A stretch of 64,000 bases of DNA from an uncultured Gammaproteobacteria bacterium (lineage in GTDB: Bacteria; Patescibacteriota; Microgenomatia; Levybacterales; UBA12049), in contig CAZEJU010000006.1 of assembly GCA_964512695.1 (NCBI GenBank), forward strand, positions 2,591 through 66,590, read 5' to 3'. This document shows positions 34,062-54,062 of this stretch, one piece after another. Under the pieces are notes generated by a model. That model worked only from the letters and a program-made list of their open reading frames with translations, was not told the DNA's origin and did not search any database. The position numbers and the translations under genes were made by a program. Each line of letters begins with the position of its first letter. Within the stretch, counting starts at the first letter, position 1.

Positions 34062-34065
34062 CATT

Positions 34066-35995: not shown

Positions 35996-36496
35996 ATGGA
36001 TTTCTCTCTACTAAATACAGTTCGATTTTCATTACTTTTAATTGTTACTTTTCTTATCTCAAGCACTTCTTTAGCATATGCTTCATCTAAGACTGAGGTA
36101 AACGTGTCAACAAATACAGGTAATAATACAGTTAATGGCCAAACAGTTGAGTCAAAGTCTGAAACCAGAATCATAATCAATGGAAAAGAGTATGTGAACG
36201 ACAATACTGGAAAATCATATGATATTGTGGAGGAAAATAATGAAGGTCGGATAGAAGTTCACGTCAATAGTAACAAATCAGATACAAAAACTCAGATAAA
36301 AAGTAATCAAGGTTCTACCACAACAGTAACCGTAACACCCAAGCCGACAAAGACAACAGAGGTCAAAAGCTCAATGACAAAGAAATCTGATCAAAAAGAG
36401 GAAATGAAGGCTGAAAAGAAAAGTATATTAGATTCGATAAAAGCCCAACTTGATGCATTCTTCTCATCAATTACCTCATTCTTCTCAAAAAAATAA
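35996..36496 (+). CDS. Hypothetical secreted protein (signal peptide; Asn/Thr/Lys-rich)
   Basis: Signal with an AYA cleavage site. Contains NTGNNTVNGQTVES, reminiscent of the repeat family. Confidence 0.4.
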   Translation: MDFSLLNTVRFSLLLIVTFLISSTSLAYASSKTEVNVSTNTGNNTVNGQTVESKSETRIIINGKEYVNDNTGKSYDIVEENNEGRIEVHVNSNKSDTKTQIKSNQGSTTTVTVTPKPTKTTEVKSSMTKKSDQKEEMKAEKKSILDSIKAQLDAFFSSITSFFSKK

Positions 36497-37042
36497 TTCG
36501 TTTTCTTTAAGAATACCCACTACAACAAACCTATGACTGTCAAGAAAGCCAGTACAGGTATACAACGTTATTCTTTTATCCTGAGACTGTTTTAATACAG
36601 AAACCTGATCAGGGGTTACTGTAGCTGTATAATGAACATCAAATTTATATTTTTTATTATCTTCACTCGTAATTATTATTTCCTCTCCTATTTTAATTTT
36701 AGGAAGCTTACCTAATAAGTTCGGCCAATTATGACCATAAAGGATACTATTACCAGTCTCTCCTGGAACAGGGGAATGAATGAGATAAGAGACACCTTCT
36801 GTAGTTGCCTCCCACTCATTATTGATGATTTTTGATTGAATAATAGGTAGTACTATCTTAAGAGATGGAATTTCAATAGATGTGGGATTTGCTATTTTTT
36901 TAGAAGTTAAATTTGCTGTAACTTGGTGTGAATCTGCAAATGATATTCTGGTTGGTTTCGTTCTTTCAATAAACCCATAGCCTGCAAAAATATAGCAGTA
37001 TATTCCGAATATAATAAGGAATAGAGAAATTATTTTTCTCAT
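36485..37042 (-). CDS. Sortase family transpeptidase
   Basis: N-terminal TM, a conserved His region (ILYGHNWPN) and a TLxTC-type catalytic Cys motif (ITLYTCTG). Confidence 0.65.
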   Translation of the reverse strand: MRKIISLFLIIFGIYCYIFAGYGFIERTKPTRISFADSHQVTANLTSKKIANPTSIEIPSLKIVLPIIQSKIINNEWEATTEGVSYLIHSPVPGETGNSILYGHNWPNLLGKLPKIKIGEEIIITSEDNKKYKFDVHYTATVTPDQVSVLKQSQDKRITLYTCTGFLDSHRFVVVGILKENELFF

Positions 37043-37050: not shown

Positions 37051-37659
37051 TTATTTTCGATTCCAGCGAAGAAGAAAACCAGCAATGAATGAAACAGTTC
37101 CGATAACTATTAAGCTATATAAGAAACTAATATTACCCGTATTAGCTAAGCTTAGAACTGATTGAAGAGGATTTGTAGAACCAACATTATTTGATGAGCT
37201 GTTGGAACTAGAATTATTCTGACTTGGTGTAGGAGTTACTGTTGATTTACATGAGTAATCACGGTTTTTAGCAACATAAGGTCGAGGATCAAGACCCCAA
37301 GCACTACCATCAGCTATATAAATCCATCCTTCATTTTTTAAAACTTTAATCTCTTCTTCTGTATAATTGGAAGCTTTAAGCCAATTTGTCTGAACTCCAT
37401 TTCCGTTTTCTGGACAGAAACATTGCATTACTTGATCATTACCAGATAACTGATAGACTGTATCACTTCCACGTTTTTCTTCGTATTGGCCAGGAACACC
37501 ATGTGTACCAGTTGCATAATGAGATTTTACTGTTCCTTGCGGATTGACACAGGAAGGAAATGTAGGAGTTGAAGTCGCTTCAGCCGCAGGCGTAGCTGTC
37601 GCAAAGAAAACAACATGTAAAACAAAAGCAATGAGAATAGTAGCGTACTTTGGACTCAT
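37051..37659 (-). CDS. Sortase-substrate surface protein with a non-canonical LANTG sorting signal
   Basis: Signal peptide. C-terminal LANTG + hydrophobic helix ISFLYSLIVIGTVSFIAGFLL + basic tail RWNRK. Immediately upstream of the sortase on the same strand. Confidence 0.5.
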   Translation of the reverse strand: MSPKYATILIAFVLHVVFFATATPAAEATSTPTFPSCVNPQGTVKSHYATGTHGVPGQYEEKRGSDTVYQLSGNDQVMQCFCPENGNGVQTNWLKASNYTEEEIKVLKNEGWIYIADGSAWGLDPRPYVAKNRDYSCKSTVTPTPSQNNSSSNSSSNNVGSTNPLQSVLSLANTGNISFLYSLIVIGTVSFIAGFLLRWNRK

Positions 37660-37713: not shown

Positions 37714-38994
37714 TTATAAGTTGAAAGGGGAGGTAAAGAGTCTAATCAGCCTGGCAAACAATGATCTATTTTTGTTTTCAGGGTTAGTACCATCATTTTC
37801 TAACGTTATTGTTTGCAATTTTTGAGTATTGTCAATTACAACAGTTTTTTTATTATAACCTGGTGCTTTAACCTCTATAGTTTGTGAAGAGAGAAGGTAG
37901 GGGATTTGAAATGTACCGTTCTTGGCTGGATTATAGGTTTTTTTATTCACTGTAATAACAGCATCTGTAATTGGGAAATTTTCATTATCCACTATTTTTC
38001 CTTTTATTATCTGATGAGAGTAAAAGTTTTTAAGAACTTCTGCACCTTTACGAGGAACCCCATTTGCTGCCCATAGAGCTGTACTACCTCCGACATTCAC
38101 CCAATAATTTATACCAATTACTTCCGTTGTCGTTGAAAGCTTAGCAAATGTTTCTGCTAGCCAGATTGCTTGTTGTTCTTCGGTCATGTTTCCATGAATA
38201 TCTGGTATAGGCGCTCCCATTTCTCCTAATACGACTTTTCCAGCTCCTCGTTTCGCGTATTCTTTAATATCCTCAATTAGTTTGTCTGGTGAACCGACAT
38301 AATGGTCTATAGTAATAACACCATCTAAAGCTTTTACCATAGCTTTATCCATAACTAAACGAGCAACATCTCCATTCATAGAGTAATAATTTGCTATAAC
38401 ATCTTTCTTAATCTGTTTAAATGCTGCTTTTGTAATTTTATATTCGTTAATTAAGAACTGCCTGAACTTATAAACATCGCCATATCTAGGATCTCCTGGA
38501 CCACCGTTTTCACATTCTGGACATGAAGTAAAGATATCCCCATCTTCAAAGAGTTCTGGATTATTTAGAATAAATTGCTCGATTTTTTGTGTATGTTCTG
38601 CTTCTGTGACTTTGCCATACCCAAACCAACCCTCCCAACCAGACAAATTACCTCGAAACCAAACGCTTAAGCCATATTTTCGTGCAGTCGATACCCAACG
38701 TTTCATAAATGGAATAAATTCTTCATCATAAGGTGTCGAAATTGAAACGTGAGACGCTCCTAAATATGCAATCTGGCTTACTTGTTTTTCAATAACAGCA
38801 TCAAATGATGTATCTGAAAGTTTCTCACGAGCTACATCTCTTGAGTATTTCATGGTATCTACTGCACGGACTGGAATAGGATGTACTGCATCAGACATAG
38901 TGGCATATACTTGAACATAAAAAATTATGCTTATTACAGCAAATAAGATAAAGATTACTATTTGTCTTTTCATAAAATATTTCATACGTATCAT
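37714..38994 (-). CDS. Putative membrane-anchored glycoside hydrolase (TIM-barrel, clan GH-A-like); last gene of the polysaccharide operon
   Basis: N-terminal TM. Candidate nucleophile region VVLGEMGAP and upstream FTSCPECENGG (candidate acid/base). The family is not assignable by eye. Confidence 0.3.
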   Translation of the reverse strand: MIRMKYFMKRQIVIFILFAVISIIFYVQVYATMSDAVHPIPVRAVDTMKYSRDVAREKLSDTSFDAVIEKQVSQIAYLGASHVSISTPYDEEFIPFMKRWVSTARKYGLSVWFRGNLSGWEGWFGYGKVTEAEHTQKIEQFILNNPELFEDGDIFTSCPECENGGPGDPRYGDVYKFRQFLINEYKITKAAFKQIKKDVIANYYSMNGDVARLVMDKAMVKALDGVITIDHYVGSPDKLIEDIKEYAKRGAGKVVLGEMGAPIPDIHGNMTEEQQAIWLAETFAKLSTTTEVIGINYWVNVGGSTALWAANGVPRKGAEVLKNFYSHQIIKGKIVDNENFPITDAVITVNKKTYNPAKNGTFQIPYLLSSQTIEVKAPGYNKKTVVIDNTQKLQTITLENDGTNPENKNRSLFARLIRLFTSPFNL

Positions 38995-40610
38995 TATAAT
39001 CTACCGAGGGTTGGTTTTGTGACGAGGTCTTTTACATAAGCATTTTTTAACTGATATATGTCTGCAAATGGATAGGATTCTACCAACTCATATTTTTCTA
39101 AATGACCTGACTGTTTAACAAGTTTAAATGTCATATCATTGTTGTCATTGGTACGCATAATGATCCAACGCGCCCATACATCTGGTCGAGCTATAGCTTT
39201 ATCCCAGTACTTACCAGTTCCTTCATGAATGAATCTAGCCATAGGAAGCCCAGAAGAGAAAATAATAGCATCATGAGAAGCAGCAGATATTAAAACAAAA
39301 CCTTCTTTTTTCTCAGCATTCTCTCGTAACCAACCACTTACCTCTGTAACGTTTTTTCCTGAAGCTCCATATCTGGCATCATCAAGTGTTACTGCATCAT
39401 TACTTATATGAGAGATAATAACGACAAAAGATAAAAGTCCCAGGAGAACAGGTCGAATCGCAGTTGCTCTATGGAAAAGATATCCCACAAATATCGCGAT
39501 TGATGGCATCATTAAGATTCCATACCGAATATTAAACCATGAATTACCTGATAAACCTTGAATGAAAAGTACTGAATGTCCTAAGAATAAGGCAATAACA
39601 TTAAACATAAAAGGAGAAAGCAGTGCTAACGCTGCGTATCGTAAGCGCATAGGAATTTTCTTATCTAACCAGAGAAGACCTCCCCCTATAACACCTAAGA
39701 GCATAAGGAAAGTCCCAGAATTATAATTAACAGCATACGTATAATACTGCAATGACAATACCAAGTTACTTTTTGTTATTAAGTTTCCTGCAGATTCTAA
39801 TTGTTTCTGTTGAGCGCGTGCTGAATAAGGTCCAAATGCGAAATATAAAGGATCTTTAAAGATTAGCAAGTTCCAGACAAACCATAAAAGTATTCCAAAG
39901 CTTGCCATAGTACAGAAAAAGATAGCAACACCTTTTGCAGTTTTAAAGCCGTACTTTCTAAGGACAAATAAGACAACCATGCCAAAACTGAATAAGAAAA
40001 GAAACCACCCATCATAACGGATAAGAGTTGAAAGCATAATCCAAAAAGAAGCCATAATAAGAGAGAGAATTTTTTCATCTTTAAACCACATTAATAGCTC
40101 ATATACACCGATAGTCATAGTAGCCATCAGAAGTAATTCAGTCATAGCTGTAGATTGAAGGTAAAGTACGTTTAAGTTAGTAGCAAAAACTAACATACCC
40201 ACTGTACTTCCTAAAAGCCCTACACCTAATCTCCGTAAAAACAGAAAGATAATAACACTTACTGCTAAATAAGAAGACATAGATTGAATTGCCCCGCTTA
40301 GACCAGAATGCCACATGAAGTTACTCCAGATAGTTGGGACCATAAGTAAATGGGGAAGAGGTAACCATACACTTCCAAGTTGCGCAAATCCAGGTTTTAA
40401 ACCCTCTACAACGCGTCTCCCGATATTAAGATGGGATCGAGCATCGTTATACGCAAGCCCCATGCCATTTAAGTAGAAAACCAGAAAAGACGCAACTGAG
40501 AAAATAGATAGTACCCAAAATAACATAAACAACAGTCTCTTTTCTTCAGCATTAGGATAGTATCGTAATTTTAGAACAGGTAAAAATATGCGTATATTTG
40601 GAAATTTCAT
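38994..40610 (-). CDS. Polytopic membrane protein, GT-C-like putative glycosyltransferase (ArnT/PMT-like)
   Basis: About 13 TM helices. The first extracytoplasmic loop carries an acidic motif, AYNDARSHLNIGRRV. Start and stop overlap the neighbouring genes. Confidence 0.3.
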   Translation of the reverse strand: MKFPNIRIFLPVLKLRYYPNAEEKRLLFMLFWVLSIFSVASFLVFYLNGMGLAYNDARSHLNIGRRVVEGLKPGFAQLGSVWLPLPHLLMVPTIWSNFMWHSGLSGAIQSMSSYLAVSVIIFLFLRRLGVGLLGSTVGMLVFATNLNVLYLQSTAMTELLLMATMTIGVYELLMWFKDEKILSLIMASFWIMLSTLIRYDGWFLFLFSFGMVVLFVLRKYGFKTAKGVAIFFCTMASFGILLWFVWNLLIFKDPLYFAFGPYSARAQQKQLESAGNLITKSNLVLSLQYYTYAVNYNSGTFLMLLGVIGGGLLWLDKKIPMRLRYAALALLSPFMFNVIALFLGHSVLFIQGLSGNSWFNIRYGILMMPSIAIFVGYLFHRATAIRPVLLGLLSFVVIISHISNDAVTLDDARYGASGKNVTEVSGWLRENAEKKEGFVLISAASHDAIIFSSGLPMARFIHEGTGKYWDKAIARPDVWARWIIMRTNDNNDMTFKLVKQSGHLEKYELVESYPFADIYQLKNAYVKDLVTKPTLGRL

Positions 40611-40615
40611 AGTTT

Positions 40616-42142
40616 TTATGTACGTCTCCTTTCATAAAGAACATGGAATGCATACATTGTTATACTCGTCAAAATAATGCACGCAGCTATTAGAAATACG
40701 TAAGAATATGCAGACCAGCTGTTTTTTAAGAAAAGATTATAAATTAGCGAGCTGACCATATTATCGTCTACAAGCTGTAAATTATATTCATATGTATATG
40801 GAATAGGCTTCATAAGACTCATTGCTTCTTGTTTTGGAGGGATTGCAGCAGTTGTTACGACACCGAGAACATTTACAAAAACACTATACACAAAAGAAAC
40901 AAAGAAAAATAATGTAAAAATTACATTTTTATAGAATCTTTGAATAGCAATACTGGTCATAACTGCTAGTATGGCTGCAGACGGAATAAGATATCGTGGC
41001 CCAAATGCCCACCCCCCCCATGGATCACCGAACATCGAATAAAGAATAATATTTACACCCACTAATGATAAGAGTACGTTTATAAAAGTTACGTTTCGTT
41101 TTTTATTATATAAGATGATAAATCCCAGAATTCCAAAAAGTATTACCGGACTATAATATAACCAGGCTCTCTCGTTGCTTAAGAGTAAAACATTCATACC
41201 TTGTACCTGCAGCCGCGATTGGAAAGGAAATAAAGATTTTTTATCTTTCGCTCCACTTGCTATAGTTGAGGTCGAAGTTTGCTTTTTCCCAAATACCTGT
41301 TGGTAATCAGTACGTCCAATTGTTTGCCCAGTCTTTAAAAGAGAACCTGTAGTGGTTTTATTGTACCAAGCAAAAAGCGACATAAAAGGTAATACTCCAA
41401 TAACTATTGTGAGAATGGAAGTTCTACATGTTATGAGGAATGACTGTCTTACTTTTTCCAGTGAAAAGTGTTTTATGACTATGTAGGAAGCAATTGGAAA
41501 TAAAAGTATTATATTAGGAATGTCAACAAGAATAGCGAATCCCAGAATACATCCAAACAAGACATTTTTAACTATAGTTCTTTCTCCGATGGCATTTCGC
41601 AAGGCTAGAAGAATAAGCAATGTGGTTACATGATGTTGCGTGTATGTATTAGCGTAAGTTAATGCATTTGTTGCAAAAAGAAAAATAAGACCTCCAATAT
41701 ATGCTGTATATTTATTTGCTCCCAGTGACCTACTAATTGACGTTATAAGAAACATATTAGCTAAAGCTATCAAGGTTATCGAAAAAAAGGTAAAGAGCTG
41801 CGGCATAGAGAGAAATCTGCCAAAAAAATAAAAAGGAATACCTATAAGCGATACACCCGGTGTGAAAATAGTGTAAAATCTTTTTTTATAATAAACCAAA
41901 TCCGGTGAGGCGAATTTTGCTTGCTGGTTCGTAAAGGATAAAGAATGATTTTCCACTATAGCTTCGGTGAGCGCGTATCGGGAGGTACTGTTAGAAGCTT
42001 CATACGGTCCACCAACGTTCGTCGCTTTTTCTTTCTGGTAGGCAATAGGATTCCCTTTATCACCTTTTACAGTAAGTAAAAGAATAAGCAGTGGAATTAT
42101 AACCATACAGATTTTTGTTAAGAATTGGAATAGTCTTTTCAT
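40616..42142 (-). CDS. Polytopic membrane protein, GT-C-like putative glycosyltransferase
   Basis: About 12 TM helices with an N-terminal loop RYALTEAIVENHSL. Operon context. Confidence 0.3.
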   Translation of the reverse strand: MKRLFQFLTKICMVIIPLLILLLTVKGDKGNPIAYQKEKATNVGGPYEASNSTSRYALTEAIVENHSLSFTNQQAKFASPDLVYYKKRFYTIFTPGVSLIGIPFYFFGRFLSMPQLFTFFSITLIALANMFLITSISRSLGANKYTAYIGGLIFLFATNALTYANTYTQHHVTTLLILLALRNAIGERTIVKNVLFGCILGFAILVDIPNIILLFPIASYIVIKHFSLEKVRQSFLITCRTSILTIVIGVLPFMSLFAWYNKTTTGSLLKTGQTIGRTDYQQVFGKKQTSTSTIASGAKDKKSLFPFQSRLQVQGMNVLLLSNERAWLYYSPVILFGILGFIILYNKKRNVTFINVLLSLVGVNIILYSMFGDPWGGWAFGPRYLIPSAAILAVMTSIAIQRFYKNVIFTLFFFVSFVYSVFVNVLGVVTTAAIPPKQEAMSLMKPIPYTYEYNLQLVDDNMVSSLIYNLFLKNSWSAYSYVFLIAACIILTSITMYAFHVLYERRRT

Positions 42143-42154
42143 ATCTTATAATAA

Positions 42155-44359
42155 TTAACTGTGAACCTTTGTATTATATATGATAGGCCTATAATTTTCA
42201 ACTAAACGTGCAGCGTATACTGGTAAATAGCTACCAAATGTAGCTAAAATAGATCTAGATCTATTATAAATAGTTAAAACTTCTCTTTTAACATCGTCTG
42301 TTAGACCGACTAAATATCTTTCACTGCGGGCATACTGCTCATGTCTTAAAGACACCATTGCAAGAAGCTGAATTGTGTAATAGATTGATAGACGGATAAA
42401 GGCCTCTTTATCACGATTCGTGAGTTTTCTTTCTTTAATAAGCACTTTAATGCCTTCTATACCTATTTTTCCATACCAAAATCTGGCAATATAAGCCAAG
42501 TCGGTATTTTTTTCCGCTAAAACCATAATTTCAGAATCTAGGATACTTATGTTTTTTTTATCGATCAGTATATTTTTTTCATGTAAATCACGATGTGAGA
42601 CAACATACTCTTTTTTTATAAAAAGCGATGAAAAAATTAATTTATAGAATTCAATACTGTTAGTGAATATTGCGTGCGCCAGCGAAGGTTTTTTTATAAA
42701 AGCTAAAAGTGCATATAAAGGAAATGTATATGCCATACTATTTGACTTTCTTACCGCTAATATTTTTTTATCATCATCACTTAATTTCTTGTTTAAAATT
42801 GTAAGTCCTTTTAAACAGGCTGATAAAACTGATATCTGCGTTTTGGTGGGTTGTGTTGTAAGCATCTTACCTTCTCTATACTCCGATAAAAGTGAAAGTT
42901 CATTTGCTGATGTATGAAAGCCGATTACTTTAGGAAAATTGATTGTATACTGCTGAACTCGAATTTTATGTATTTTTTTTAACATTGATAATATTCGCCA
43001 TACGTTATATGTTTGTATGTACTCTAATGTTTTTCCTTGATAGGGTATTTGCCGAATGATAACTTTTTCTTTAGCATCATTCATATATAATCTGGTTCTA
43101 TGCACTAAATTTGATGAGGGAGATTTTAGTTCTTTTAAAAAACTAAATCCACTTACTGGAGAATAGGTAACTTTTTTATGGAGTTTTTTATAAAAGAAGG
43201 ATAACAACTTACCGTTTAGCGAATCAAGTAAGGCAAAATTGTCATTTACATTATCTTTTTTGTTATTTTCAACAATTCCGTGAAAGAATGTTAAGTATTG
43301 TTCTGTAATGCTATCCCAAGAATACCTTTTAGCAACTTTCTTATATGCCGCAATATTTGCTTTTAGTTTTCCTTTCTCTGCGGTTTTTAACAATATTTTT
43401 GCATACTCATTAAAGTTAAAAGGAACAGCTTTTTCTATGCCTGTATTTCTCGTCCACTCAAGGCCTTTTATATTAAAACTTACCACAGGAACTCCGCTTG
43501 CTAACGCTTCGAGTGTAAATAATGAAAAACCTTCATATCGTGATGGTAAAGCTACAACAGCAGCATGTTTAAGAAGCGAACGCTTCTTATTATCATATGC
43601 AGGGCCTACTAAAGAGACTTTCCCTTCTAGACCTAACTGATGGATCATATCTTCTATACGTTTTTTATCTGGTCCATGTCCTGCTATAACTAGCGGATAC
43701 ATAGTCTTACTGGAAATTTTTTTGTACGCATGAAGTAATATATCTATACCTTTCTGGCTTATGTCTAATCTTCCTAAAAATAATATGTACTTTCTCTTTG
43801 CAGGTTGATTTGTAAAATATTCATCGCCTACTCCTTCATGAATTACTGTAGTTTTAGTATGAGAGTTTAGTTCAGTTATTTTTTTAGCAGCAGAGTTTGT
43901 GCTTGCAATAAAATATTTGTAGAGTCGTGACCCATATTTCTCAACTTTATCGAAGGGTAAATGGTAAATATTGGCAAATCTATTTGCTTCAAAAGATGTA
44001 GATTTTCCAACTACTGGAATTCTTGTAAAGAGAGGAGAACATAGTGTCGAGATGGGTGCAGTAAAACACTCGATGATAATGTCAGCCTGAAGTCTTCTGA
44101 CAATAAAGGGCAGCGAAAAGATATACGCAATGTTATTCAATCTGATATTTTTTGTTCCAACTCCTATATGTCTATAATAAATTCCTTTCTCAAACCTATC
44201 TTTATATCCTGGATATCGAGAACTGATAACGGTGACTTTATGTCCTTTCTTTATCATTCGCGATGCCACTTCATATGTAGAACGTGCTTGCCCAGCACCT
44301 AAAAAAGGATTTTTAATATCATCAAAGTCAAGAAAAATTATATGTAATGATTCTTTCAT
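42155..44359 (-). CDS. Bifunctional GT4 glycosyltransferase / APH-ChoK-like kinase fusion protein
   Basis: The N-terminal half is GT4: the C-terminal subdomain has EGFSLFTLEALASGVPVV (EX7E). The C-terminal half has a kinase-like catalytic loop VVSHRDLHEKNILI (HxDxxxxN) and a DSE (DFG-like) motif. Confidence 0.55.
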   Translation of the reverse strand: MKESLHIIFLDFDDIKNPFLGAGQARSTYEVASRMIKKGHKVTVISSRYPGYKDRFEKGIYYRHIGVGTKNIRLNNIAYIFSLPFIVRRLQADIIIECFTAPISTLCSPLFTRIPVVGKSTSFEANRFANIYHLPFDKVEKYGSRLYKYFIASTNSAAKKITELNSHTKTTVIHEGVGDEYFTNQPAKRKYILFLGRLDISQKGIDILLHAYKKISSKTMYPLVIAGHGPDKKRIEDMIHQLGLEGKVSLVGPAYDNKKRSLLKHAAVVALPSRYEGFSLFTLEALASGVPVVSFNIKGLEWTRNTGIEKAVPFNFNEYAKILLKTAEKGKLKANIAAYKKVAKRYSWDSITEQYLTFFHGIVENNKKDNVNDNFALLDSLNGKLLSFFYKKLHKKVTYSPVSGFSFLKELKSPSSNLVHRTRLYMNDAKEKVIIRQIPYQGKTLEYIQTYNVWRILSMLKKIHKIRVQQYTINFPKVIGFHTSANELSLLSEYREGKMLTTQPTKTQISVLSACLKGLTILNKKLSDDDKKILAVRKSNSMAYTFPLYALLAFIKKPSLAHAIFTNSIEFYKLIFSSLFIKKEYVVSHRDLHEKNILIDKKNISILDSEIMVLAEKNTDLAYIARFWYGKIGIEGIKVLIKERKLTNRDKEAFIRLSIYYTIQLLAMVSLRHEQYARSERYLVGLTDDVKREVLTIYNRSRSILATFGSYLPVYAARLVENYRPIIYNTKVHS

Positions 44360-47300
44360 ATATTTATAGTTTCCTCTTGAGCTAGAAATATATCTCCGTA
44401 TCGTGGGAAATCCGCCTGTTTCGGTAGTACACCTTGTATAATCGAATCAAGAGCTTCTGCACTTTTCTCCCATGTAAATCTTTTAGACCAAACAGTAGAC
44501 TTAGTGGACAACTTCTGTAATAGTTTTTTATCTTCTATGGTTACCAGCATTGCAGTACAGAACGCTTCAACGTTTCCACACTCAATAAGAAGACCCGTTT
44601 CCTTATCGACAACTGAATCTTTTAGTCCATTAACGCGCGATGCAATAACCGGCGTTCCGCTAGAATTAGCTTCGATAACTGTTATACCCCATCCTTCAAC
44701 TTGTGAAGGCTGTATCATAACCCAACTTTCCGCTAGTAATTGTGCTTTAAGGTCGTTAGATACTTTTCCGTAAAATATAACATTTCTTTCTATTTTTAGC
44801 TGTTGTGCTAATTGTTGTAAAGAATGAAGACTTTCACCTTCACCAACAATTCTAAGTACCGCAGTTTTATGGGTACGCAGAACTTTCGCAAATGCTTTAA
44901 TTGCAATATCAATATTTTTATGTGGTTTTAAACGACCTAAATAAATGAATGATGGATACCTCGTTTTTTTTCTCGGTTTAAATACTGTTGCATCAATTCC
45001 GTTGTAAACAATTTCAATATTTTCTGGGTGGGAAAAACCCAGATCTATAATAGACTTTTTAGAAGATTCAGAAACTGTTATCACAGGTTTATTTCTATAT
45101 GCATACGGCATAAGTTTCGATTCCATGATTGCTACAAGCTTCGCAACAGGATAGATGAGATATTTCCTAAACACTTCTTGATGAACATGATGAATTATTA
45201 AGAAAATAGGTTTACGAACGTAGAAGGGGGAAAAAAATGGAATGCCGTTCTCACAGTCTATGACAACATCCGTCTTTTTTCTTAAAAAGAAAACATAGTA
45301 TATAACTGCCCAAATATATACAGTATAAGCTCCTCCTCGTCGGATAATACGAACTCCATCAATAATTTCGTTTCTAGGAGACTTCTTATCATTTCCACAA
45401 AATACTGTTACATCTTTTCCTTGAGTCACCCACCTTTTTGCGATTTCATGTATATATACTTCAGCGCCTCCTGACCATTTATGTCTTGTATCTCGCCAGT
45501 TTAAGAATAGAATAGCCTGTTTCTTATCAGTATTATCTTCGGTAACAATCTGATTTTCTTTACTAATAAGTGCTCCTAAAGCTTTTTCAAATGCAATAAC
45601 AGTTTTGTTATTTCTGTGGAGAAATAACATAACAAGTAAATGAAATTGCCCAAGTGCTGCCATCGTATATACAAAATCTAAAAGAGTGGCATGTCTGAAT
45701 GTAATCAGTGTTATTTGTACGAATGATAACAACACCACAGTAGCGGGGAATGTATATATATTTTTAGCCAAATAATAAGAGACAATAGTTTTAGAGATGG
45801 TAAAACAGAACATACCGAAAGAGAATGCAAATACATAGGGTAGTATATAGGATGCTTTTTCGCCAAATAATAGGGGTAACGAAATGCTTCCAAGAATCCC
45901 GAAAGCAATAAATCCAATCCCGCTCACTACGCCAGTACTAATCACTGAGTAATAAAAGAGAAGCTCTGTATTTTTATTTTTTCCTTCTAACTTACTAACA
46001 AATGGAATTACAAATTGAGTTGTTAGACCACCTAAGAAGAAAATCATCTTTCCACATAAAGAAAGTAATGCATATTTTCCTGCTTCTTCCGGGGCTAAGA
46101 AATGATTCGCAAGTAAGATATCAACACTCATGAACGTAACATTGGCAATACTTGCTAATATAGAAGCTGAAAAAAACTTACTTGGAAATGCTAAAGCTTC
46201 GGTGGAAACAGTACTTTTTATAAGTTTTATAAAACGAGGTATAAAAAATGCCGAAGAAACATATGCTAATACGAATGCTAAAGGTATAGCTATATATACA
46301 TAATTCTCATATCCAGAATAAATTAAAATTACACTTAAAATTACTTTATAGAAAGGTTCGATAAGAATTGCGCCAGCTAAGTTAATAAATAGTAACTTAC
46401 CAGATAGATAGCCTCTATCCACTGAAAACCTAAAACCAACGAGCCAAACTAAAGAAAAGAACACAAATGGAAGTATGGACTGTGTTTTAAAAAGCGACTG
46501 TAATGTCGGAGATATTATTAACCAAACTGTTGCACTTACAAGCGAAACTAGAACAACTTGATTTCTCATGAAGCCCCAGAAGGCAGCTGCAGTTTGTTTG
46601 TTATATCGACTTTCAGACAGTGCAGTTTTATGACTTATAGCTGCTTGTAAAGAAGAAAAGGGAACACTTGCAAGATATGCTAAGCTTGCGACAAGACTTA
46701 TAATACTAATTGTCTCTAATGAAATAGTAGGTATTCTATAAATTATAATGTTATAAACTAAATTCATTATATGTGCGCCTGTAACTGCCATCATTAAGAT
46801 TGAGCTTGTAATAATGTTTCTTTTATATGGCGTAAGCATTTTTATTACATTAGAAAGTATGTTAAATTGGAGAGAAAAAGATTTTCTTACAGGCTTAACT
46901 ATTGGTGTCTCGACTTCTATCTGAATAGCAGGAATAATCGCTTTCTTTTTCTTTTGTAGATGCAATCCGTGAATTGTTTTCTCCCAGTAATGAGGTTTAA
47001 AGATAAGCTGGTATAATGCAACCCATCCTGCAATACTTACCATTAACCAATATATAGGTATAAAAAGAGCTGAGTAAATTAAGTCCCACTGTTTTCTCTT
47101 CGCACATCCGATCATGTAGTAATATAAAAAGAGGAAATTACCAAATACGAGAGAGATTGCGCCCAGGTAAAAAGCAGGAGCTATATAAACGAGTTCTAAA
47201 GTTGGTCCGACAATAGAATATAAAGCAAAATAGGAAATAGTAGCAAGCCACAAGAAAGGATTGAGGAAAATAAACGTTAATTTACTTCCGATTGTCAATT

Positions 47301-49113
47301 GAAAAAGAAATGCATGGATTCCTTTACTCTTTCCAAATGACCAGATATCTCGCATGTGGACAAGATAAGACTGAAGGTAACCTTTTATCCACCGTGAACG
47401 CTGACGAATCCAGTTACGAGGGTTACTGTTAGCTTCTTCTAATGTTACTGAATCAATAATGGCTGTTTTATATCCTTCTTTAAATAACCGAATACCTAAA
47501 TCAGCATCTTCTGTAACGTTAAATGTATCCCATCCTTGCAGTTTTCTCAGGTATGATGTTCTAAAATGATTACTTGTTCCACCAAGAGGAATATTCGTAT
47601 TAATTGATTGTAATCCTGGTAATATGAGGTCAAACCATAAAGAGTATTCTGCAGAGAAGAATTTCGTTAACCAGTTCTGATGAGGATTATAATAATTAAG
47701 TTTTGCCTGTAAACAGATGGTTTTTTCAGATTGTTTTAAAAATCCAATATATGCTTTTTTAAGTTGTAATGGATCTGGTATATCTTCTGCGTCATAAATA
47801 ACTATATATTCACCCTTCGCAATGTTTAGACCATAGTTACAAGCCTTTGGCTTAGTCTTTGGTTGCGACAAAGGGACTATTACGGGTCTAACAAAAAATG
47901 GTAGCCTCATTTTCTTTATTTCCGCAATTGTGTCGGTATCGTCCTCTTCAAGCAATAAAATAACATCCAGTTTACGCTTCGGCCATTCTAATTTTTCAAT
48001 TGCATTTAAAAACTGTGGGAGAATTGCTGCTTCTTTATATAAAGGGCAGAGAATTGAATAAATGGGTAATTCATCATCCGGGATGAGATTAACCTCACGA
48101 TCATCAATATTTATCTCAGGATTATTCCGTAAGCTTCGCATGATAACGTATAGATTGAAGAGAACATCAATAAAATAAACTACGCTTATAATGGTGATAG
48201 CAGTTCTAGCAGTAGTTAATGGCCACAAAAAACTACTTGTCACGAAGAAAGCTATAAGAAGGAAAATAATAAAAAGCTGAGATCGTACGAATGTCTGTAA
48301 AGCTGTTTTGTGATAGGGGAGGCTCGTGTGGGTAATATATCTATTTTTCTTATACCCAATGCCAGCACCGATCATAGAATCTTTTCTCATAGCTGGAATA
48401 CTGATGGGTTTCATGCGCGTAAGTTTAACGAGTAACGCATTTGAACCTATTTCCAACACTTGTTTTAAGTAATGAACTTTAGAAGATCCATTTTCCCTCG
48501 GAGCAAATGCTATATCATAATTAACAATTTTATACCCGGCTTCTCTTGCTCTATAGAGAAACTCTAAATCAAATGTCCATGGAGAACGTGGAATTGCTCT
48601 TAAAGCTAAAAATACATCTTTTCTGAAAACTTTTAGACCTGATTGAACATCAGTACGTAATCCGAAAAGTGCTGTTCCAAAAAGCGATCGAAAGCCTCTA
48701 CTTAATACTCTCCGTAACTTGGATGCCTGAAACTTCTTTCTGTTTGCTACGACGATATCACCTTTCTCAAGCATGTGAATCATACCTGGAATTGCCGATG
48801 GGGGATATTGTAAATCACCATCAATCATAACCAGAACATCACCGTGGGCTTTATGAAACCCTTCAAGAAGAGAATATGATTTACCAGGTTTGCCTAGTTT
48901 TTTATAAACAAAAACCTGTGGTGATGTTTTAGATTGTTTATTTAAATATTCAAAAGTGCCGTCTGTAGACATATCATCCATATAAACAAGTTCAAACGGC
49001 ACACGCATTGCTTTTAACTCTGCCAGCAGAAGCTTGTTCAGGGTTTTTACATTGCCAATTTCGTTGAAAACAGGAATAATGACGCTTATTTTTTTGAAAT
49101 TATTTTTTTTCAT
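44356..49113 (-). CDS. 1585-aa multidomain polysaccharide synthase: GT2 + processive GT2 (QxxRW) + polytopic membrane (flippase/MOP-like?) + GT4
   Basis: aa 1-230 is GT2 (SVIIPVFNE...DDMSTDGT...VMIDGDLQYPP). aa 340-600 is a second GT2 (YDAEDIPDPLQL, QRSRWIKGY). aa 600-1150 has more than 12 TM helices (AGKYALLSL region). The C-terminus is GT4 (FLNWRDTRHKWSGGAEVY...VEGWGITVIEANSSGTPVIAS). Confidence 0.65.
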   Translation of the reverse strand: MKKNNFKKISVIIPVFNEIGNVKTLNKLLLAELKAMRVPFELVYMDDMSTDGTFEYLNKQSKTSPQVFVYKKLGKPGKSYSLLEGFHKAHGDVLVMIDGDLQYPPSAIPGMIHMLEKGDIVVANRKKFQASKLRRVLSRGFRSLFGTALFGLRTDVQSGLKVFRKDVFLALRAIPRSPWTFDLEFLYRAREAGYKIVNYDIAFAPRENGSSKVHYLKQVLEIGSNALLVKLTRMKPISIPAMRKDSMIGAGIGYKKNRYITHTSLPYHKTALQTFVRSQLFIIFLLIAFFVTSSFLWPLTTARTAITIISVVYFIDVLFNLYVIMRSLRNNPEINIDDREVNLIPDDELPIYSILCPLYKEAAILPQFLNAIEKLEWPKRKLDVILLLEEDDTDTIAEIKKMRLPFFVRPVIVPLSQPKTKPKACNYGLNIAKGEYIVIYDAEDIPDPLQLKKAYIGFLKQSEKTICLQAKLNYYNPHQNWLTKFFSAEYSLWFDLILPGLQSINTNIPLGGTSNHFRTSYLRKLQGWDTFNVTEDADLGIRLFKEGYKTAIIDSVTLEEANSNPRNWIRQRSRWIKGYLQSYLVHMRDIWSFGKSKGIHAFLFQLTIGSKLTFIFLNPFLWLATISYFALYSIVGPTLELVYIAPAFYLGAISLVFGNFLFLYYYMIGCAKRKQWDLIYSALFIPIYWLMVSIAGWVALYQLIFKPHYWEKTIHGLHLQKKKKAIIPAIQIEVETPIVKPVRKSFSLQFNILSNVIKMLTPYKRNIITSSILMMAVTGAHIMNLVYNIIIYRIPTISLETISIISLVASLAYLASVPFSSLQAAISHKTALSESRYNKQTAAAFWGFMRNQVVLVSLVSATVWLIISPTLQSLFKTQSILPFVFFSLVWLVGFRFSVDRGYLSGKLLFINLAGAILIEPFYKVILSVILIYSGYENYVYIAIPLAFVLAYVSSAFFIPRFIKLIKSTVSTEALAFPSKFFSASILASIANVTFMSVDILLANHFLAPEEAGKYALLSLCGKMIFFLGGLTTQFVIPFVSKLEGKNKNTELLFYYSVISTGVVSGIGFIAFGILGSISLPLLFGEKASYILPYVFAFSFGMFCFTISKTIVSYYLAKNIYTFPATVVLLSFVQITLITFRHATLLDFVYTMAALGQFHLLVMLFLHRNNKTVIAFEKALGALISKENQIVTEDNTDKKQAILFLNWRDTRHKWSGGAEVYIHEIAKRWVTQGKDVTVFCGNDKKSPRNEIIDGVRIIRRGGAYTVYIWAVIYYVFFLRKKTDVVIDCENGIPFFSPFYVRKPIFLIIHHVHQEVFRKYLIYPVAKLVAIMESKLMPYAYRNKPVITVSESSKKSIIDLGFSHPENIEIVYNGIDATVFKPRKKTRYPSFIYLGRLKPHKNIDIAIKAFAKVLRTHKTAVLRIVGEGESLHSLQQLAQQLKIERNVIFYGKVSNDLKAQLLAESWVMIQPSQVEGWGITVIEANSSGTPVIASRVNGLKDSVVDKETGLLIECGNVEAFCTAMLVTIEDKKLLQKLSTKSTVWSKRFTWEKSAEALDSIIQGVLPKQADFPRYGDIFLAQEETINI

Positions 49114-49116
49114 AAT

Positions 49117-49332
49117 TTATGAATTTGAATATAAATTCGAATGGTTTTTTCTAACTTTATGTTCGCGGATAAACTTTTCTAAGGAAGATTTCTGAATACG
49201 GTAATGACCACCAAATTCGATGGCTTCGAGTTTATGTTCTTTAATATACTTATATACTGTAAGAACACTTAATTTGAGGAATTGTGAGACTTCCTGCACC
49301 GTATACAATATTTCGCTTTCTATATTGTTCAT
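49117..49332 (-). CDS. Excisionase/Xis-family HTH DNA-binding protein (MerR-like HTH_17)
   Basis: YTVQEVSQFLKLSVLTVYKYIKEHKLEAIEFGGHYRI matches the excisionase-family HTH signature. Its stop is 3 nt before the start of the giant GT gene. Confidence 0.6.
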   Translation of the reverse strand: MNNIESEILYTVQEVSQFLKLSVLTVYKYIKEHKLEAIEFGGHYRIQKSSLEKFIREHKVRKNHSNLYSNS

Positions 49333-49858
49333 AAAAGTACCGGGCAGGTATTCTATTCATGCTACTTTACACAAAAAACACATCCTATAGAAGATGAGTT
49401 TAAGATTTCTTTATATAGCATATATAGGCTTATACTGTCAAGCTTTAACTATAATTTGGTTATAGTAAGTTATACTAACTTAACTATTCTATTAGTTATT
49501 TATACTCTTTTCTGTACGTAAACTTACAAATTGATACAGTGTTACTTATTGACAAGATAAGATTATTTTCTCACTATATATGTATACGAATTTTTTAATT
49601 TAAATACTTCGAATTAATGCTAAGTTAATTTTTATAAATGTGAACATATGAGGAATGTTCTCATTCGAATAGATTCGTACAAGAGGGGGTGATGATATGG
49701 CAGTAAATAAAAAAACACAAAAAGCTCAACCTAAGAAGATACACCATAAAGTTGCAAATCATTTGGAGAAACCCGTTAGTACATTATTCGGATATACGAT
49801 CATACTTATGTTCTTAGTTGCAACGCTTGTAATTCTCGCAACCTATTTTTAGTTGAAT

Positions 49859-50421
49859 TTATTCTTGTTTGGCAAAAATAAGCAATCGTTTTAAAGATGT
49901 ACCTATTGGTGTACATGTTTGTACGATTAATTGATCTTTATCTAAATTTTCCAAAAATTCGGTTTCGTTAGGCCAAACTTCTTTTTTATCAAAAACAAGA
50001 AAACGATAGTCTTTTTTCTTATATCTTAGAAAAATTATGTCGTTTTTTTGTAATTCTCCTAATCGAAAGAAGATTGTGTTATACCTAGATATCTCCCAAG
50101 GCGAACCAGATGAATGAGCAAACAAATATATCGTACCTCTAGTTCCGGGTAAAGCACTCCCTTTTGCATGTGCAACTCCTTTTTTTAAAGCTTCATTATA
50201 TATTTTCTCATTCCATGGATCGACTTTTTCCACTATAGGAGCATATGCATGAATTTTTGGAATGGCAATCGTAGTACCTTCAGATATGGCTGGTTTGACA
50301 GGCTGGGTTAAGGGGGGAAATATGTATATTTTTATAATTGGATAAAATGTGTAAAGAAGTCCAACTATCGATACTATAATTAAAAAATTGCTGAAATAAT
50401 AAAGAATTTTCGGATTTTTCA
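49859..50421 (-). CDS. Sortase family transpeptidase
   Basis: The track ORF extends to a TTG at 50464; the first ATG (MKNPKILYYF) is at 50421. N-terminal TM, a His region (LFAHSSGSPW) and catalytic LIVQTCTP (TLxTC). Confidence 0.65.
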
Positions 50422-50462
50422 TGAACTTGGGAATGATTCTACAGAAAAGCAGGAAAATTAGC

Positions 50463-50492
50463 AAAAAAAACCCCGCTTGTGGCGGGGTTTTT
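50463..50492. terminator. Bidirectional intrinsic terminator between the LPATG gene and the sortase gene
   Basis: A8-CCCCGC ttgt GGCGGGG-T5. Confidence 0.6.
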
Positions 50493-50505
50493 GCTACAAC
50501 AGAAC

Positions 50506-51654
50506 TTATACTGTTGCTGGTGATCTTCCAGATCGCAGTCTTAATGTCACACCCAGAAAAAACATTGCAATATTTCCGATGAGAAATAGTAAGAGGTTAT
50601 AGTTTCCAGTTGCGGGTAAAATCTTCTGGATTGATGTTCCAAGCACATCTCCACCTTTACCATTACTCGAAGATTTCGATTCTGAAGGTTTGGAGTCAGA
50701 AGTTGACGGAGGCGTAGTGGGTTGCACACCACCGGTAGGAGGTTTTTGCTCTTCTGGCTTTTCCTCACAGCACGTTACTTTTGCGATATTTACATTTATT
50801 GGTCCATTTACAACTTTTGCAAAATAGAAAATATCGCCAGTTTCTATTGTTACATTCGATTTTGTGTTGTTATTTGCTATGTTATTTCCAGTATCTAAAA
50901 TCCAAAGAATATCATTTATAATATTTGCAGTATTATTAACTGTTATATCATTATTTACATTATGAGTAATTGAAGCATTATTTTGCGAAGCAGAACCATT
51001 TCCTTTAATCGAAATAGCATAATTTTTATTAGTATTTAATGTAGACTCTTGATAGTTTATATTTAATGGACCGTTTGTAATTTTCTCTACGACAGTAATG
51101 TTTCCTGTTTTTATATAAACATTTCCGCTGGAATTACTGCTTCCTGTATTTCCGCCAGTGTTAGCTATTCCACGAATTGTATTCGTTATAGAAAGTGTGT
51201 TTGTACCAGTACTTACTGAGGATTGTGTTCCATTAAGAGTAATACTATTATCTGAGTCCGTGCCATTATTAGTGATTGTTGTAGAAGTTTGTCCCACCTC
51301 GCAGCATCCTGCAGTAACTATGTTAGCGTTTCCTGTATTTGTAACGTCGGTGGTGATATCTACGTCACCAGTGTCTACTCGCGAGTCGCCACCTGTCGTA
51401 TCTGAAACCGAGTTACCTCCAGTTGTACCAGAGATAGTAAAATTGTTTGAAGTATCCTGAGTATTCGATTGTGAACTTTCATTTACTTGCGTGGACGATG
51501 ATTGAATATCATTAGTAGAATTACTACCATTCCCTGCTATAACTACTTCATTTGCCAGAGCTAATCTGGAACTTGAAATAAGTATGAACATTACTATAAA
51601 GCCTCGATATATCATCTGATAGAATTTTTTATGAAAAAACATTTTTGTAAACAT
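50506..51654 (-). CDS. LPATG-anchored tandem-repeat surface protein (repeat family paralogue)
   Basis: Signal peptide. Repeat modules (AGCCEVGQTSTTITNNGTDSDNSITLNGTQSSVSTGTNTLSITNTIRGIANTGGNTGSSNSSGNVYIKTGNITV and similar). Ser/Pro/Thr-rich stalk. C-terminal LPATG + TM + RLRSGRS. Confidence 0.6.
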   Translation of the reverse strand: MFTKMFFHKKFYQMIYRGFIVMFILISSSRLALANEVVIAGNGSNSTNDIQSSSTQVNESSQSNTQDTSNNFTISGTTGGNSVSDTTGGDSRVDTGDVDITTDVTNTGNANIVTAGCCEVGQTSTTITNNGTDSDNSITLNGTQSSVSTGTNTLSITNTIRGIANTGGNTGSSNSSGNVYIKTGNITVVEKITNGPLNINYQESTLNTNKNYAISIKGNGSASQNNASITHNVNNDITVNNTANIINDILWILDTGNNIANNNTKSNVTIETGDIFYFAKVVNGPINVNIAKVTCCEEKPEEQKPPTGGVQPTTPPSTSDSKPSESKSSSNGKGGDVLGTSIQKILPATGNYNLLLFLIGNIAMFFLGVTLRLRSGRSPATV

Positions 51655-51706
51655 ATAAAATAACTGGCAGAAAGTCAGTAATGCTACTTACAAGAGGCAG
51701 GGATAT

Positions 51707-54046: not shown

Positions 54047-54062
54047 CCCACGACTTTCAAGA

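Follow-up and report, generated by a model that had tools for sequence, protein, structure and literature searches.

A four-module glycosyltransferase protein and its conserved gene cluster suggest a hybrid polysaccharide pathway in a Microgenomates-type bacterium

Organization of the locus

The window analyzed here is the 64,000-nucleotide (nt) stretch of contig CAZEJU010000006.1 (assembly GCA_964512695.1, positions 2,591 to 66,590) from a bacterium placed by GTDB in the Levybacterales (Microgenomatia, Patescibacteriota). Between window positions 37714 and 49332 it carries six genes, all on the minus strand, for a candidate polysaccharide pathway centered on a protein of 1585 amino acids (aa) with four modules. 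In the direction of transcription, scanning for open reading frames (ORFs) gives a 71-aa helix-turn-helix (HTH) gene of the HTH_17/excisionase family (49117..49332), the giant gene (1585 aa, 44356..49113), a 734-aa gene that joins a family 4 glycosyltransferase (GT4) to a kinase-like domain (42155..44359), a polytopic GT-C-type gene of 508 aa (40616..42142), a polytopic GT-C gene of 538 aa (38994..40610) and a 426-aa gene for an anchored glycoside hydrolase (GH)-like protein (37714..38994). Going down this list, neighboring genes lie 3 nt apart, overlap by 4 nt, lie 12 nt and then 5 nt apart and, at the last junction, overlap by 1 nt. A preliminary description of this DNA had presented the six closely spaced genes as one transcription unit encoding an excisionase-family HTH protein, a giant multidomain protein, a GT4-kinase fusion, two GT-C-like polytopic proteins and a membrane-anchored GH-like enzyme. 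Its coordinates are exact and its gene assignments agree with the results below; the unit itself is probably longer by two genes.

These two genes adjoin the GH-like gene at short distances and trail it in many related loci, for which reason the end of the transcription unit is probably at 36485. The first encodes a 202-aa sortase substrate with an LAxTG signal (37051..37659, minus strand; alignment of 16 homologues and synteny) and starts 54 nt beyond the GH-like gene; the second, after a further 8 nt, encodes a 185-aa sortase (36485..37042, minus strand; Pfam Sortase, 2.5e-24). The G+C content of the locus, about 0.32-0.36, matches that of the remainder of the window. Scans of the locus for promoters and terminators returned signals no higher than shuffled background, so the operon boundaries are drawn purely from gene spacing and synteny. 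Homologues of all six genes are numerous and their order is kept in dozens of independent metagenome-assembled genomes (MAGs); the arrangement is not due to chance.

The giant protein and its relatives

The giant gene is a genuine fusion typical of its lineage, as follows from its many full-length relatives and from natural splits at the domain borders. A search of 5.8 billion proteins found more than 120 full-length, co-linear relatives (1533-1645 aa, 47-70% identity) in NCBI, JGI, ENA and Logan assemblies, named, where a name is given, Levybacteria, Curtissbacteria or Patescibacteria. When one genome per GTDB species was scanned, at least 591 loci with relatives of the synthase core were detected; among the matches listed, the four-module protein is encoded by Woese-, Ames-, Davies-, Gottesman-, Levy-, Doudna- and Dojkabacteria. 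The gene is intact, with all four modules, in 29 of the 82 loci retrieved (given L numbers here). The closest relative, L083, is 70% identical and has a gene order identical to that of the window, both flanking sortases included. An assembly or frameshift fusion, the risk that the preliminary description had attached to so large an ORF, is ruled out by these full-length homologues and by the gene order of L083.

Split versions, which the same description had proposed to look for by comparative genomics, do exist. With the modules termed, from the N-terminus, GT2_1, GT2_2, PST and GT4, the split genes are cut at domain borders, either between GT2_1 and GT2_2-PST-GT4 or between GT2_1-GT2_2 and PST-GT4, and several show ordinary operon junctions a few nt wide. 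Other variants lack PST, lack GT2_1 or encode PST as a gene of its own (L026, L043, L054). The modules are therefore autonomous units of one pathway. The arrangement had been called highly unusual, which is true relative to characterized systems; within Microgenomates sequence space the four-module fusion is common, as is clear also from the 591 or more loci with synthase-core relatives.

Two observations concern the source records. L043, a contig labeled Saccharimonadales, has three copies of the system side by side (1698-9443 and 9932-14083), two of them minimal pairs of a GT2_1-GT2_2 gene and a 538-like GT-C gene and one a full four-module gene, which points to duplication of the core unit. 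Many GTDB records with this typical locus of the candidate phyla radiation (CPR) bear the title "uncultured Gammaproteobacteria", "Bdellovibrionales" or "Pseudomonadales" (L003, L008, L010, L012 and others) and are probably mislabeled MAG records.

Hydropathy analysis places 14 transmembrane (TM) segments in the giant protein: two at residues 280-324, at least two after the second family 2 glycosyltransferase (GT2) and 10 in a block at 770-1165, in which spacing gaps allow about 12 helices. Pfam detects Glycos_transf_2 at 10-168, Glyco_tranf_2_3 together with Glyco_trans_2_3 at 352-645 and GT4 at 1215-1538. A DPM1-like GT2, a second GT2 with ED and QxxRW motifs, more than 12 TM segments and a C-terminal GT4 had been read from the sequence before, and the Pfam, NCBIfam and hydropathy results bear out this domain content.

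Module 1 (residues 1-335; 48109..49113) is assigned by Pfam, PDB and NCBIfam matches and by its motifs to the polyprenyl-phosphate glycosyltransferases of the GtrB/DPM1/ArnC family. It matches the structures of dolichyl-phosphate mannose synthase (DPMS, 5mlz, 3.3e-17), ArnC (9bhc, 2e-14) and GtrB (5ekp, 8e-12) and the NCBIfam families PgfS (6.6e-22) and ArnC (5e-20). A GT-A domain is followed by TM helices at 280-298 and 306-324 by hydropathy. Residues D46/D47 and D98-x-D100-L-Q-Y-P-P, in the context MIDGDLQYPP, are invariant in 40 homologues, Q102 and Y103 included.

Module 2 (residues 336-725; 46939..48108) is a BcsA/PgaC-like membrane-embedded GT2 by Pfam, TIGR and PDB matches and by motifs. 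The profile searches that had been suggested as a check on the second GT2 find it readily: TIGR03030 CelA matches at 6.4e-20 (70.7 bits, cut-off 699.1), PgaC_IcaA at 3.8e-14 (52.5 bits, cut-off 422.3) and the BcsA structures 7lby/4hg6 at 2.5e-10, in an alignment that spans the TED and QRSRW motifs. DAED (441-444), TED (534-536), QRSRW (571-575) and WEKTxHG are invariant among 40 homologues. The last of these follows the final helix of the module and resembles the WGTR and FxVTxK loops. Two TM helices precede the catalytic domain and at least 2-4 come after it by hydropathy. All scores are below the curated thresholds of the named synthase families (CelA, PgaC_IcaA, NodC), and the sequence places module 2 in a separate, unnamed subfamily of processive-type GT2 synthases. 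It is the most conserved part of the giant protein and the sole universal one among the collected loci, and stand-alone homologues with 46-50% identity are found in Actinobacteria, Chloroflexi and Bacillota. One of these, from Paraconexibacter sp. (L072:9062-11323), bears an N-terminal MshEN domain that binds cyclic di-GMP (c-di-GMP; 5.9e-30), which points to second-messenger control of this GT2 family outside the CPR. NfrB is a c-di-GMP-controlled exopolysaccharide synthase with a domain of the MshEN type (PMC8669469).

Module 3 (residues 745-1190; 45544..46881), with about 10-12 predicted TM helices in residues 770-1165, is by homology a Wzx/PST flippase for lipid-linked glycans (MOP superfamily), an assignment made through its orthologues. 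It aligns with residues 755-1172 of the orthologue P0040 at 9e-62 (30% identity over 421 aa), and that stretch of P0040 matches PF13440 at 2.8e-14 (53.5 bits, cut-off 23; positions 2-293 of the 293 in the profile) and PF01943 at 1.3e-7. PF01943 (Polysacc_synt) is matched by all six orthologues tested, and Polysacc_synt_3 is matched above threshold over the whole profile in two of them (2.8e-14 and 3e-11). The TM block had been described as a putative export channel; a BcsA-like channel is rejected in favor of the Wzx/PST flippase on the strength of these orthologue matches and the alignment.

Module 4 (residues 1196-1585; 44359..45528) is assigned by Pfam and PDB matches to the cytoplasmic retaining GT4 enzymes of GT-B fold (Glycos_transf_1, 4e-41; Glyco_transf_4, 6e-15). 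Its PDB matches are the GT4 structures 2jjm and 3c4q (MshA-like), PimA/PimB and TarM, and it matches Agl16 below threshold. In split relatives the GT4 module always accompanies PST as a PST-GT4 unit.

Partner enzymes

The N-terminal half of the 734-aa protein (43250..44359) is a second GT4 by Pfam (residues 23-303; Glycos_transf_1, 2e-27; Glyco_transf_4, 8e-13). In 23 of 40 loci the giant gene is followed by a stand-alone GT4 homologous to this half; this synteny sample comprises the loci that extend 9 kb or more beyond the giant gene on its downstream side. The C-terminal half (42158..43222) appears, from its motifs and weak matches, to have a kinase-like fold with a catalytic core like that of aminoglycoside phosphotransferases (APH) and choline kinases (ChoK). 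H210-x-D212-xxxx-N217 (HRDLHxxN) and D229-x-E231 (IDxE) are invariant in seven homologues, and the usual beta3 Lys position is occupied by Arg in the window protein. It matches APH(3') at about 1e-4 (22 bits, cut-off 205) and PDB structures of eukaryotic protein kinases, spectinomycin phosphotransferase and choline kinase at 1e-4 to 3e-3, the 1e-4 matches being confined to the catalytic loop; no match to APH, Choline_kinase or Pkinase is above threshold. The L083 orthologue shows a faint precomputed APH match. The domain is present in only 9 of the 40 loci, and elsewhere it forms a gene by itself or is joined to a polysaccharide deacetylase (L002) or to a 508-type GT-C (L039). A phosphorylated glycan product is possible.

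The 508- and 538-aa proteins have eight TM segments each by hydropathy. They have no Pfam match and no PDB sequence match, even with profiles, and stand outside the named GT-C sequence families (PMT, PMT_2, YfhO, ArnT); a fused 538-like homologue gives only faint PMT/PMT_2 Pfam matches. Structures were predicted for two proteins, the 538-aa GT-C and the 426-aa GH-like protein. The 538-aa protein, which is conserved as partner to the synthase GT2, is a glycosyltransferase of GT-C fold whose C-terminal part is an extracytoplasmic alpha/beta domain: it has the GT-C membrane fold and, in the first extracytoplasmic loop, a conserved acidic residue, D56 (YNDARSH), which is invariant in sets of 43 and of 52 homologues. 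The predicted local distance difference test score (pLDDT) of this loop is low. Comparison of the two families by hhalign (probability 94.9%, E 4e-8, 311 columns) identifies the 508-aa protein as a distant paralogue of the 538-aa protein, likewise GT-C-type. It matches the NCBIfam LA_3751/LA_3752 putative glycosyltransferase at 1.4e-10, under the cut-off, and P80-D81 in the first outside loop is invariant in its family. The GT-C and GH proteins are annotated as hypothetical proteins in every source.

The predicted structure of the 426-aa protein (pLDDT 90.8) consists of an N-terminal anchor helix, which is also the single anchor seen by hydropathy, a (beta/alpha)8 barrel and a C-terminal CarboxypepD_reg-like beta-sandwich. 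The barrel has the arrangement that defines clan GH-A, with a Glu acid/base after strand 4 and a Glu nucleophile after strand 7. Invariant E162-N163, H231-Y232, E258 (in LGEFG) and W298 lie at GH5 signature positions, as assigned by position. The protein is accordingly predicted to be a membrane-anchored extracytoplasmic clan GH-A (GH5-like) barrel enzyme. The clan is read from the structure, since the sequence searches (PDB profile, hhalign) are not significant; there is no Pfam GH match, and Glyco_hydro_cc is matched by only 3 of 23 homologues. Its top matches are mostly active on beta-glycans, which fits the product of an inverting GT2, and a slight excess of mannan-active enzymes among them is only a hint.

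The 202-aa protein has a signal peptide, a conserved domain of about 100 aa with four invariant Cys in the alignment of its homologues, a Ser/Asn/Thr-rich linker, the LAxTG sorting signal, a TM helix and a basic tail. Its gene follows the GH gene in at least 15 of the 40 loci, a count limited by flank length, and stands in the same order in L083 and L084; by its sequence features it is a sortase substrate, and it accompanies the locus. The NCBIfam class C, D, F and E matches of the 185-aa sortase are all under their cut-offs, and the pairing of LAxTG gene and sortase gene is conserved. A class E sortase, which the LAxTG motif might be taken to imply, was dropped as no class match exceeds its cut-off.

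The HTH protein matches HTH_17 at 1.3e-14 (54.6 bits, cut-off 27) and TIGR01764 "excise" at 1.3e-13 (51 bits, cut-off 28.8), in agreement with the earlier excisionase-family call. It had also been described as leading the operon. This does not extend beyond the closest clade: the gene is upstream of the giant gene in 5 of 69 loci by automated count and in L001 and L016, all of that clade. No integrase or mobile-element context is seen around it, which makes a regulatory role likelier than excision, and the protein is probably a lineage-specific operon regulator.

Conservation and gene fusions across phyla

The locus is among the most conserved large gene sets in Microgenomates. In the synteny sample the 508-type GT-C is present in 37 of 40 loci, the 538-type in 35 and the GH protein in 29, and 27 loci have all three in the order of the window. 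The distance from the giant gene to the first GT-C ranges between 0.1 and 9.3 kb. In relatives this spacer contains GT2 and GT4 genes and genes for aminotransferases, methyltransferases, epimerases and isomerases; that of the window, the GT4-kinase gene alone, is among the shortest.

The two GT-C genes have different distributions. The 508-type is present in 44 of 52 loci with PST/GT4 modules versus 2 of 30 without them, and the 538-type lies within 1.8 kb downstream in 9 of 29 loci that have the GT2 core alone. In Amnibacterium (L063) and Ca. Nephthysia (L065) a single 1100-aa protein, encoded right after a stand-alone module 2 homologue, joins an ArnC-like GT2, a 538-like membrane domain and a GH5 domain, in this order. 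ArnC is the best solved relative of its GT2 (6e-16) and its GH5 domain matches Pfam Cellulase at 1e-9. In L056 a 538-like domain with faint PMT matches is fused to GH5 (Pfam Cellulase, 1e-13), and L040 and L043 have minimal units in which a GT2_1-GT2_2 gene is followed by a 538-like gene. These fusions and minimal units, together with the tracking of PST/GT4 by the 508-type, suggest an old core of synthase GT2, lipid-phosphate-sugar synthase, 538-type GT-C and GH-A hydrolase, to which Microgenomates have added PST-GT4, the second GT4, the variable cassette, the kinase and the 508-type GT-C.

Pfam scanning of the window ORFs that are 120 aa or longer and lie at 26.7-62.4 kb gives no phosphoglycosyl transferase (Bac_transf, Glycos_transf_4), and the gene tables of L001, L002, L083 and L084 list none either. 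The same ORFs and four related loci also contain no Wzy polymerase, Wzz or other polysaccharide co-polymerase (PCP) chain-length regulator, or LCP gene.

Proposed pathway and alternatives

We propose, at about even odds (probability roughly 0.5), that the locus encodes a hybrid pathway of a Microgenomates-type CPR bacterium in which sugars from lipid-phosphate-linked donors are added, outside the membrane, to a synthase-made beta-glycan. The substrates, the acceptor, the order of the steps, the cargo of the flippase and the substrate of the kinase are what we infer from the module families, catalytic motifs, synteny, and fusion and fission patterns described above. Module 2 would polymerize a beta-linked glycan from a nucleotide sugar and extrude the product. 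Module 1 would load a sugar onto polyprenyl phosphate at the cytoplasmic face, the PST module would serve as flippase in the manner of GacK, and the 538-aa GT-C would move the flipped sugar to an outside acceptor, most likely the nascent glycan. The anchored GH-A hydrolase may trim, release or remodel the beta-glycan, as BcsZ and PslG do. The LAxTG protein and its sortase may anchor, bind or carry the glycan, and the HTH protein would act as a local regulator.

GT-C enzymes use lipid-phosphate-linked donors, and such a donor is suggested here by the fold of the GT-C proteins and by their ArnC-like fusion in L063 and L065. The preliminary description took the DPM1-like GT2 to be an initiator. 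Module 1 is better read as making the lipid-phosphate sugar for the GT-C than as priming module 2, because it is the sole candidate donor maker here and is fused to GT-C in other phyla, as in the actinobacterial fusion of ArnC-like GT2, GT-C and GH5. The lipid chemistry is most likely monophosphate-based, given that the scanned ORFs and the four related loci hold no phosphoglycosyl transferase. For the Microgenomates add-on two routes can be drawn. The PST module may flip a polyprenyl-phosphate monosaccharide, as proposed for GacK, or a short oligosaccharide may be built on the module 1 product while linked to polyprenyl monophosphate, then flipped and handed on by the 508-aa GT-C in a manner like that of the Haloferax Agl pathway. 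The presence of the GT4s and of the variable cassette is the reason for considering the oligosaccharide. Three-component extracytoplasmic glycosylation systems provide a precedent (PMC11127046): with GacI (GtrB-like), GacK (of the Wzx family) and GacL (GT-C), GacK is the proposed mover of GlcNAc-P-undecaprenol for GacL (bioRxiv 10.1101/180810). Haloferax glycans are assembled on dolichol monophosphate, flipped and then transferred (PMC3871713).

The earlier view of a novel synthase-dependent, all-in-one enzyme thus stands in part. A synthase-type GT2 is present, but the system is not purely synthase-dependent, as two types of pathway are fused in it.

Several points weigh against the hybrid pathway. 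It is just as possible that the GT-C acts on a lipid, peptidoglycan or protein acceptor. The minimal units carry no recognizable flippase, which leaves the cargo of PST ambiguous; the window's own module 3 has no Polysacc_synt or Polysacc_synt_3 Pfam match at E<=0.01, and a search with a 9-sequence profile of the module returned no solved MOP structure at E<=1. Polymerization is a putative function of module 2, since the QxxRW motif set is also seen in non-processive GT21-type lipid glucosyltransferases and homologues of module 2 give weak Glyco_transf_21 matches. Comparison of the window GH with the GH5 domain fused in L056 is not significant by hhalign, and the window GH is an analogous clan-A barrel to the fused GH5 domains, not a proven orthologue. 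Finally, the loci were gathered by similarity to module 2 with 10-kb flanks, by which the co-occurrence counts are biased and truncated.

The strongest competitor, although unlikely, is a lipoglycan pathway in the style of mycobacterial lipomannan (LM) and lipoarabinomannan (LAM) or of a lipoteichoic-acid anchor, with no synthase-extruded polymer. The GT4s, possibly with a GT21-like module 2, would build a glycolipid in the inner leaflet, PST would flip it and the two GT-Cs would polymerize and branch a glycan on it outside, using the polyprenyl-phosphate sugar of module 1. A DPM1-like enzyme, GT4s and GT-C make up the enzyme set of phosphatidylinositol mannosides (PIM), LM and LAM, PimA/PimB are among the PDB matches of module 4, and in L001 a gene of the inositol-monophosphatase family directly follows the giant gene; the weak GT21 matches point the same way. 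The Lactobacillus johnsonii homopolysaccharide needs genes for a bactoprenol glycosyltransferase and a flippase (PMC7117936). Yet the nearest profiles of module 2 are those of cellulose and poly-N-acetylglucosamine (PNAG) synthases, not of lipid glycosyltransferases, and it has the full processive motif set with flanking TM helices. A secreted hydrolase of clan GH-A, which other phyla have fused to GT-C, is a typical feature of polysaccharide-synthase systems, and the MshEN fusion of a relative fits an exopolysaccharide synthase.

Protein O-glycosylation is more doubtful still. Here the polyprenyl-phosphate sugar of module 1 would supply PMT-like GT-Cs that modify the Ser/Thr-rich linkers of sortase-anchored proteins such as the 202-aa LAxTG protein, in analogy to actinobacterial Pmt/Ppm1 or streptococcal GtrB/GT-C systems. 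The Ser/Asn/Thr-rich linker of that protein is suited to this role, and LAxTG and sortase genes trail the locus in many genomes, but the linker is unconserved, being Gly-rich or composed of DGRT repeats in some homologues, and the pair of GT2 and GT-C occurs in other phyla with neither LAxTG protein nor sortase. The faint PMT/PMT_2 matches of the fused homologue and the PgfS match of module 1, its second-best in NCBIfam and named for an adhesin-glycosylation system of S. mutans, would also be accounted for; this reading has no role for the processive GT2 core or the GH-A hydrolase, nor for the GT4s and the variable sugar cassette. Streptococcal Ser/Thr-rich disordered regions are reported to be O-glycosylated, and GtrB is named 71 times in the same work (PMC11092751).

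A classical Wzx/Wzy locus, in which GT4 and GT2 enzymes would assemble a repeat unit on undecaprenyl diphosphate, PST would flip it and the two polytopic proteins would be Wzy and a ligase, is improbable: the Wzx/PST module and the relatives' variable cassette of glycosyltransferase and nucleotide-sugar genes (DegT, FdtA, methyltransferases, epimerases) do recall O-antigen and capsule loci, but the scanned window ORFs and four related loci hold no initiating phosphoglycosyl transferase and lack Wzz/PCP and LCP genes as well, both polytopic proteins are of GT-C type, and the GtrB-like and BcsA-like modules have no place in it.

Carried further, the hybrid pathway would amount to a fifth polysaccharide route, ancient in Terrabacteria and CPR. 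It would combine BcsA-like extrusion of the backbone, elaboration by GT-C enzymes from polyprenyl-monophosphate mono- or oligosaccharides, and Wzx-type flipping, all with no phosphoglycosyl transferase, and its product would be the main wall glycopolymer of Microgenomates, displayed with or on a dedicated sortase-anchored protein and replacing teichoic-acid-like polymers in these reduced episymbionts. We regard this combined reading as speculative and rather unlikely.

Neighboring genes

Upstream of the HTH gene, a 525-nt gap contains a divergent 51-aa ORF (49697-49852, plus strand) with a single hydrophobic helix and a strong GGGGGTGATGAT ribosome-binding stretch. Beyond it, a second sortase (49859-50464, minus strand) adjoins a 382-aa Asn/Thr/Gly/Ser-rich protein (50506-51654, minus strand) whose C-terminus has LPATG, a TM helix and a basic tail. 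Two big proteins with no Pfam match lie beside this pair (51707-54046, 779 aa; 54063-55298, 411 aa; both minus strand). The upstream counterpart in L083 is a sortase followed by genes of 381, 758 and 410 aa with no Pfam match, paired with those of the window by position and size only. The cluster at 49859-55298 looks like a separate sortase-substrate cluster, pilus- or adhesin-like.

Other envelope-linked neighbors are a PBP5-type DD-carboxypeptidase (28954-29919), a BacA/UppP undecaprenyl-diphosphate phosphatase (30793-31566), a camelysin/TasA-like protein (32099-32671), a Lamin-tail-domain protein (33369-34061) and an RTX-repeat protein (34027-35013). BacA is near the locus in L001 too. At 24001-26000 of the window the G+C content is 0.467 versus about 0.35 elsewhere, around a 397-aa ORF (24380-25573, minus strand).

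Significance and comparison with known systems

The CPR or Patescibacteria, which live attached to host cells, account for a large part of bacterial diversity, and their envelope glycans are essentially uncharacterized. Because it is so highly conserved in Microgenomates, where the 538-aa GT-C keeps about 60% identity throughout the group, the locus is a strong candidate for making a core polymer of the cell surface with a part in attachment, host recognition or phage defense. Its fusions tie together four enzyme classes that are usually studied in separate pathways, and they predict a synthase-made glycan decorated by a three-component GT-C system. They also provide a natural example in which to ask what proteins move polyprenyl-monophosphate sugars across the membrane, as a Wzx-type domain is here covalently tied to the putative maker of such a lipid. 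Actinobacterial relatives in cultivable genera (Amnibacterium, Nocardioides, Paraconexibacter) make the core testable in the laboratory.

Every module belongs to a known superfamily and none scores above the curated threshold of a named family. A literature search of incomplete coverage returned nothing relevant on the CPR fusion or on a system of GT2, GT-C and GH5, and no experimental study. Nor did it return a paper on the joining of a synthase-type GT2 with a three-component GT-C system or on their fusion with a Wzx module in one polypeptide. This silence is weak evidence that the system is undescribed. What the locus presents is a sound, conserved system with informative fusions, not the demonstration of a new principle.

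Among known systems, the mycobacterial assembly of PIM, LM, LAM and arabinogalactan (PimA/PimB, Ppm1, PimE/MptA/Emb/Aft) has no close sequence relationship to the window. To our knowledge, these pathways include no BcsA-like synthase, Wzx-type module or operon-encoded GH5-like enzyme.

The Agl pathway of the archaeon Haloferax volcanii has a DPM1-like AglJ, Wzx-like AglR and Agl15, and GT-C enzymes AglB and AglS. Like the Agl pathway, the gene content of the window needs no phosphoglycosyl transferase. AglJ starts on polyprenol monophosphate, further glycosyltransferases extend the glycan and AglR or Agl15 is involved in flipping; delivery is by the oligosaccharyltransferase AglB and by AglS, a mannosyltransferase that uses DolP-mannose (PMC3871713). 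The Agl pathway differs from the window in that it is archaeal, uses dolichol, targets Asn of the S-layer protein and has no processive GT2, GH or fusions, and the homology between the two is at the superfamily level only.

With the synthase systems BcsA-BcsB-BcsZ, PgaC/IcaA and NfrB the locus shares, in module 2, a membrane GT2 with D, DxD, TED and QxxRW motifs and flanking TM helices. Like the systems of BcsZ and PslG, the operon encodes a dedicated extracytoplasmic glycoside hydrolase, and like NfrB, one relative of module 2 has a c-di-GMP-binding MshEN domain. Unlike these systems, the window protein lacks PilZ, BcsB, PgaD and any other co-polymerase, as well as a c-di-GMP domain, and module 2 is covalently joined to a lipid-phosphate-sugar synthase, a flippase and a GT4. 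We know of no characterized synthase system that is partnered with GT-C enzymes, as this locus is.

The co-encoding of a GtrB-type GT2, a flippase and a GT-C is shared with the three-component systems GtrA/GtrB/GtrC, CsbB/GtcA/YfhO, GacI/GacK/GacL and PpgS/Rv3789/Rv3779, and the flippase candidate is of the Wzx family, like GacK of group A Streptococcus, and not of the GtrA type. Unlike these systems, the components of the window are fused with a putative backbone synthase and there are two GT-C paralogues; the two GT4s and the relatives' glycosyltransferase cassette suggest a lipid-linked oligosaccharide, beyond a monosaccharide donor. The decorated glycans known to us have ABC- or Wzy-dependent backbones, whereas the backbone predicted here would be made by a synthase.

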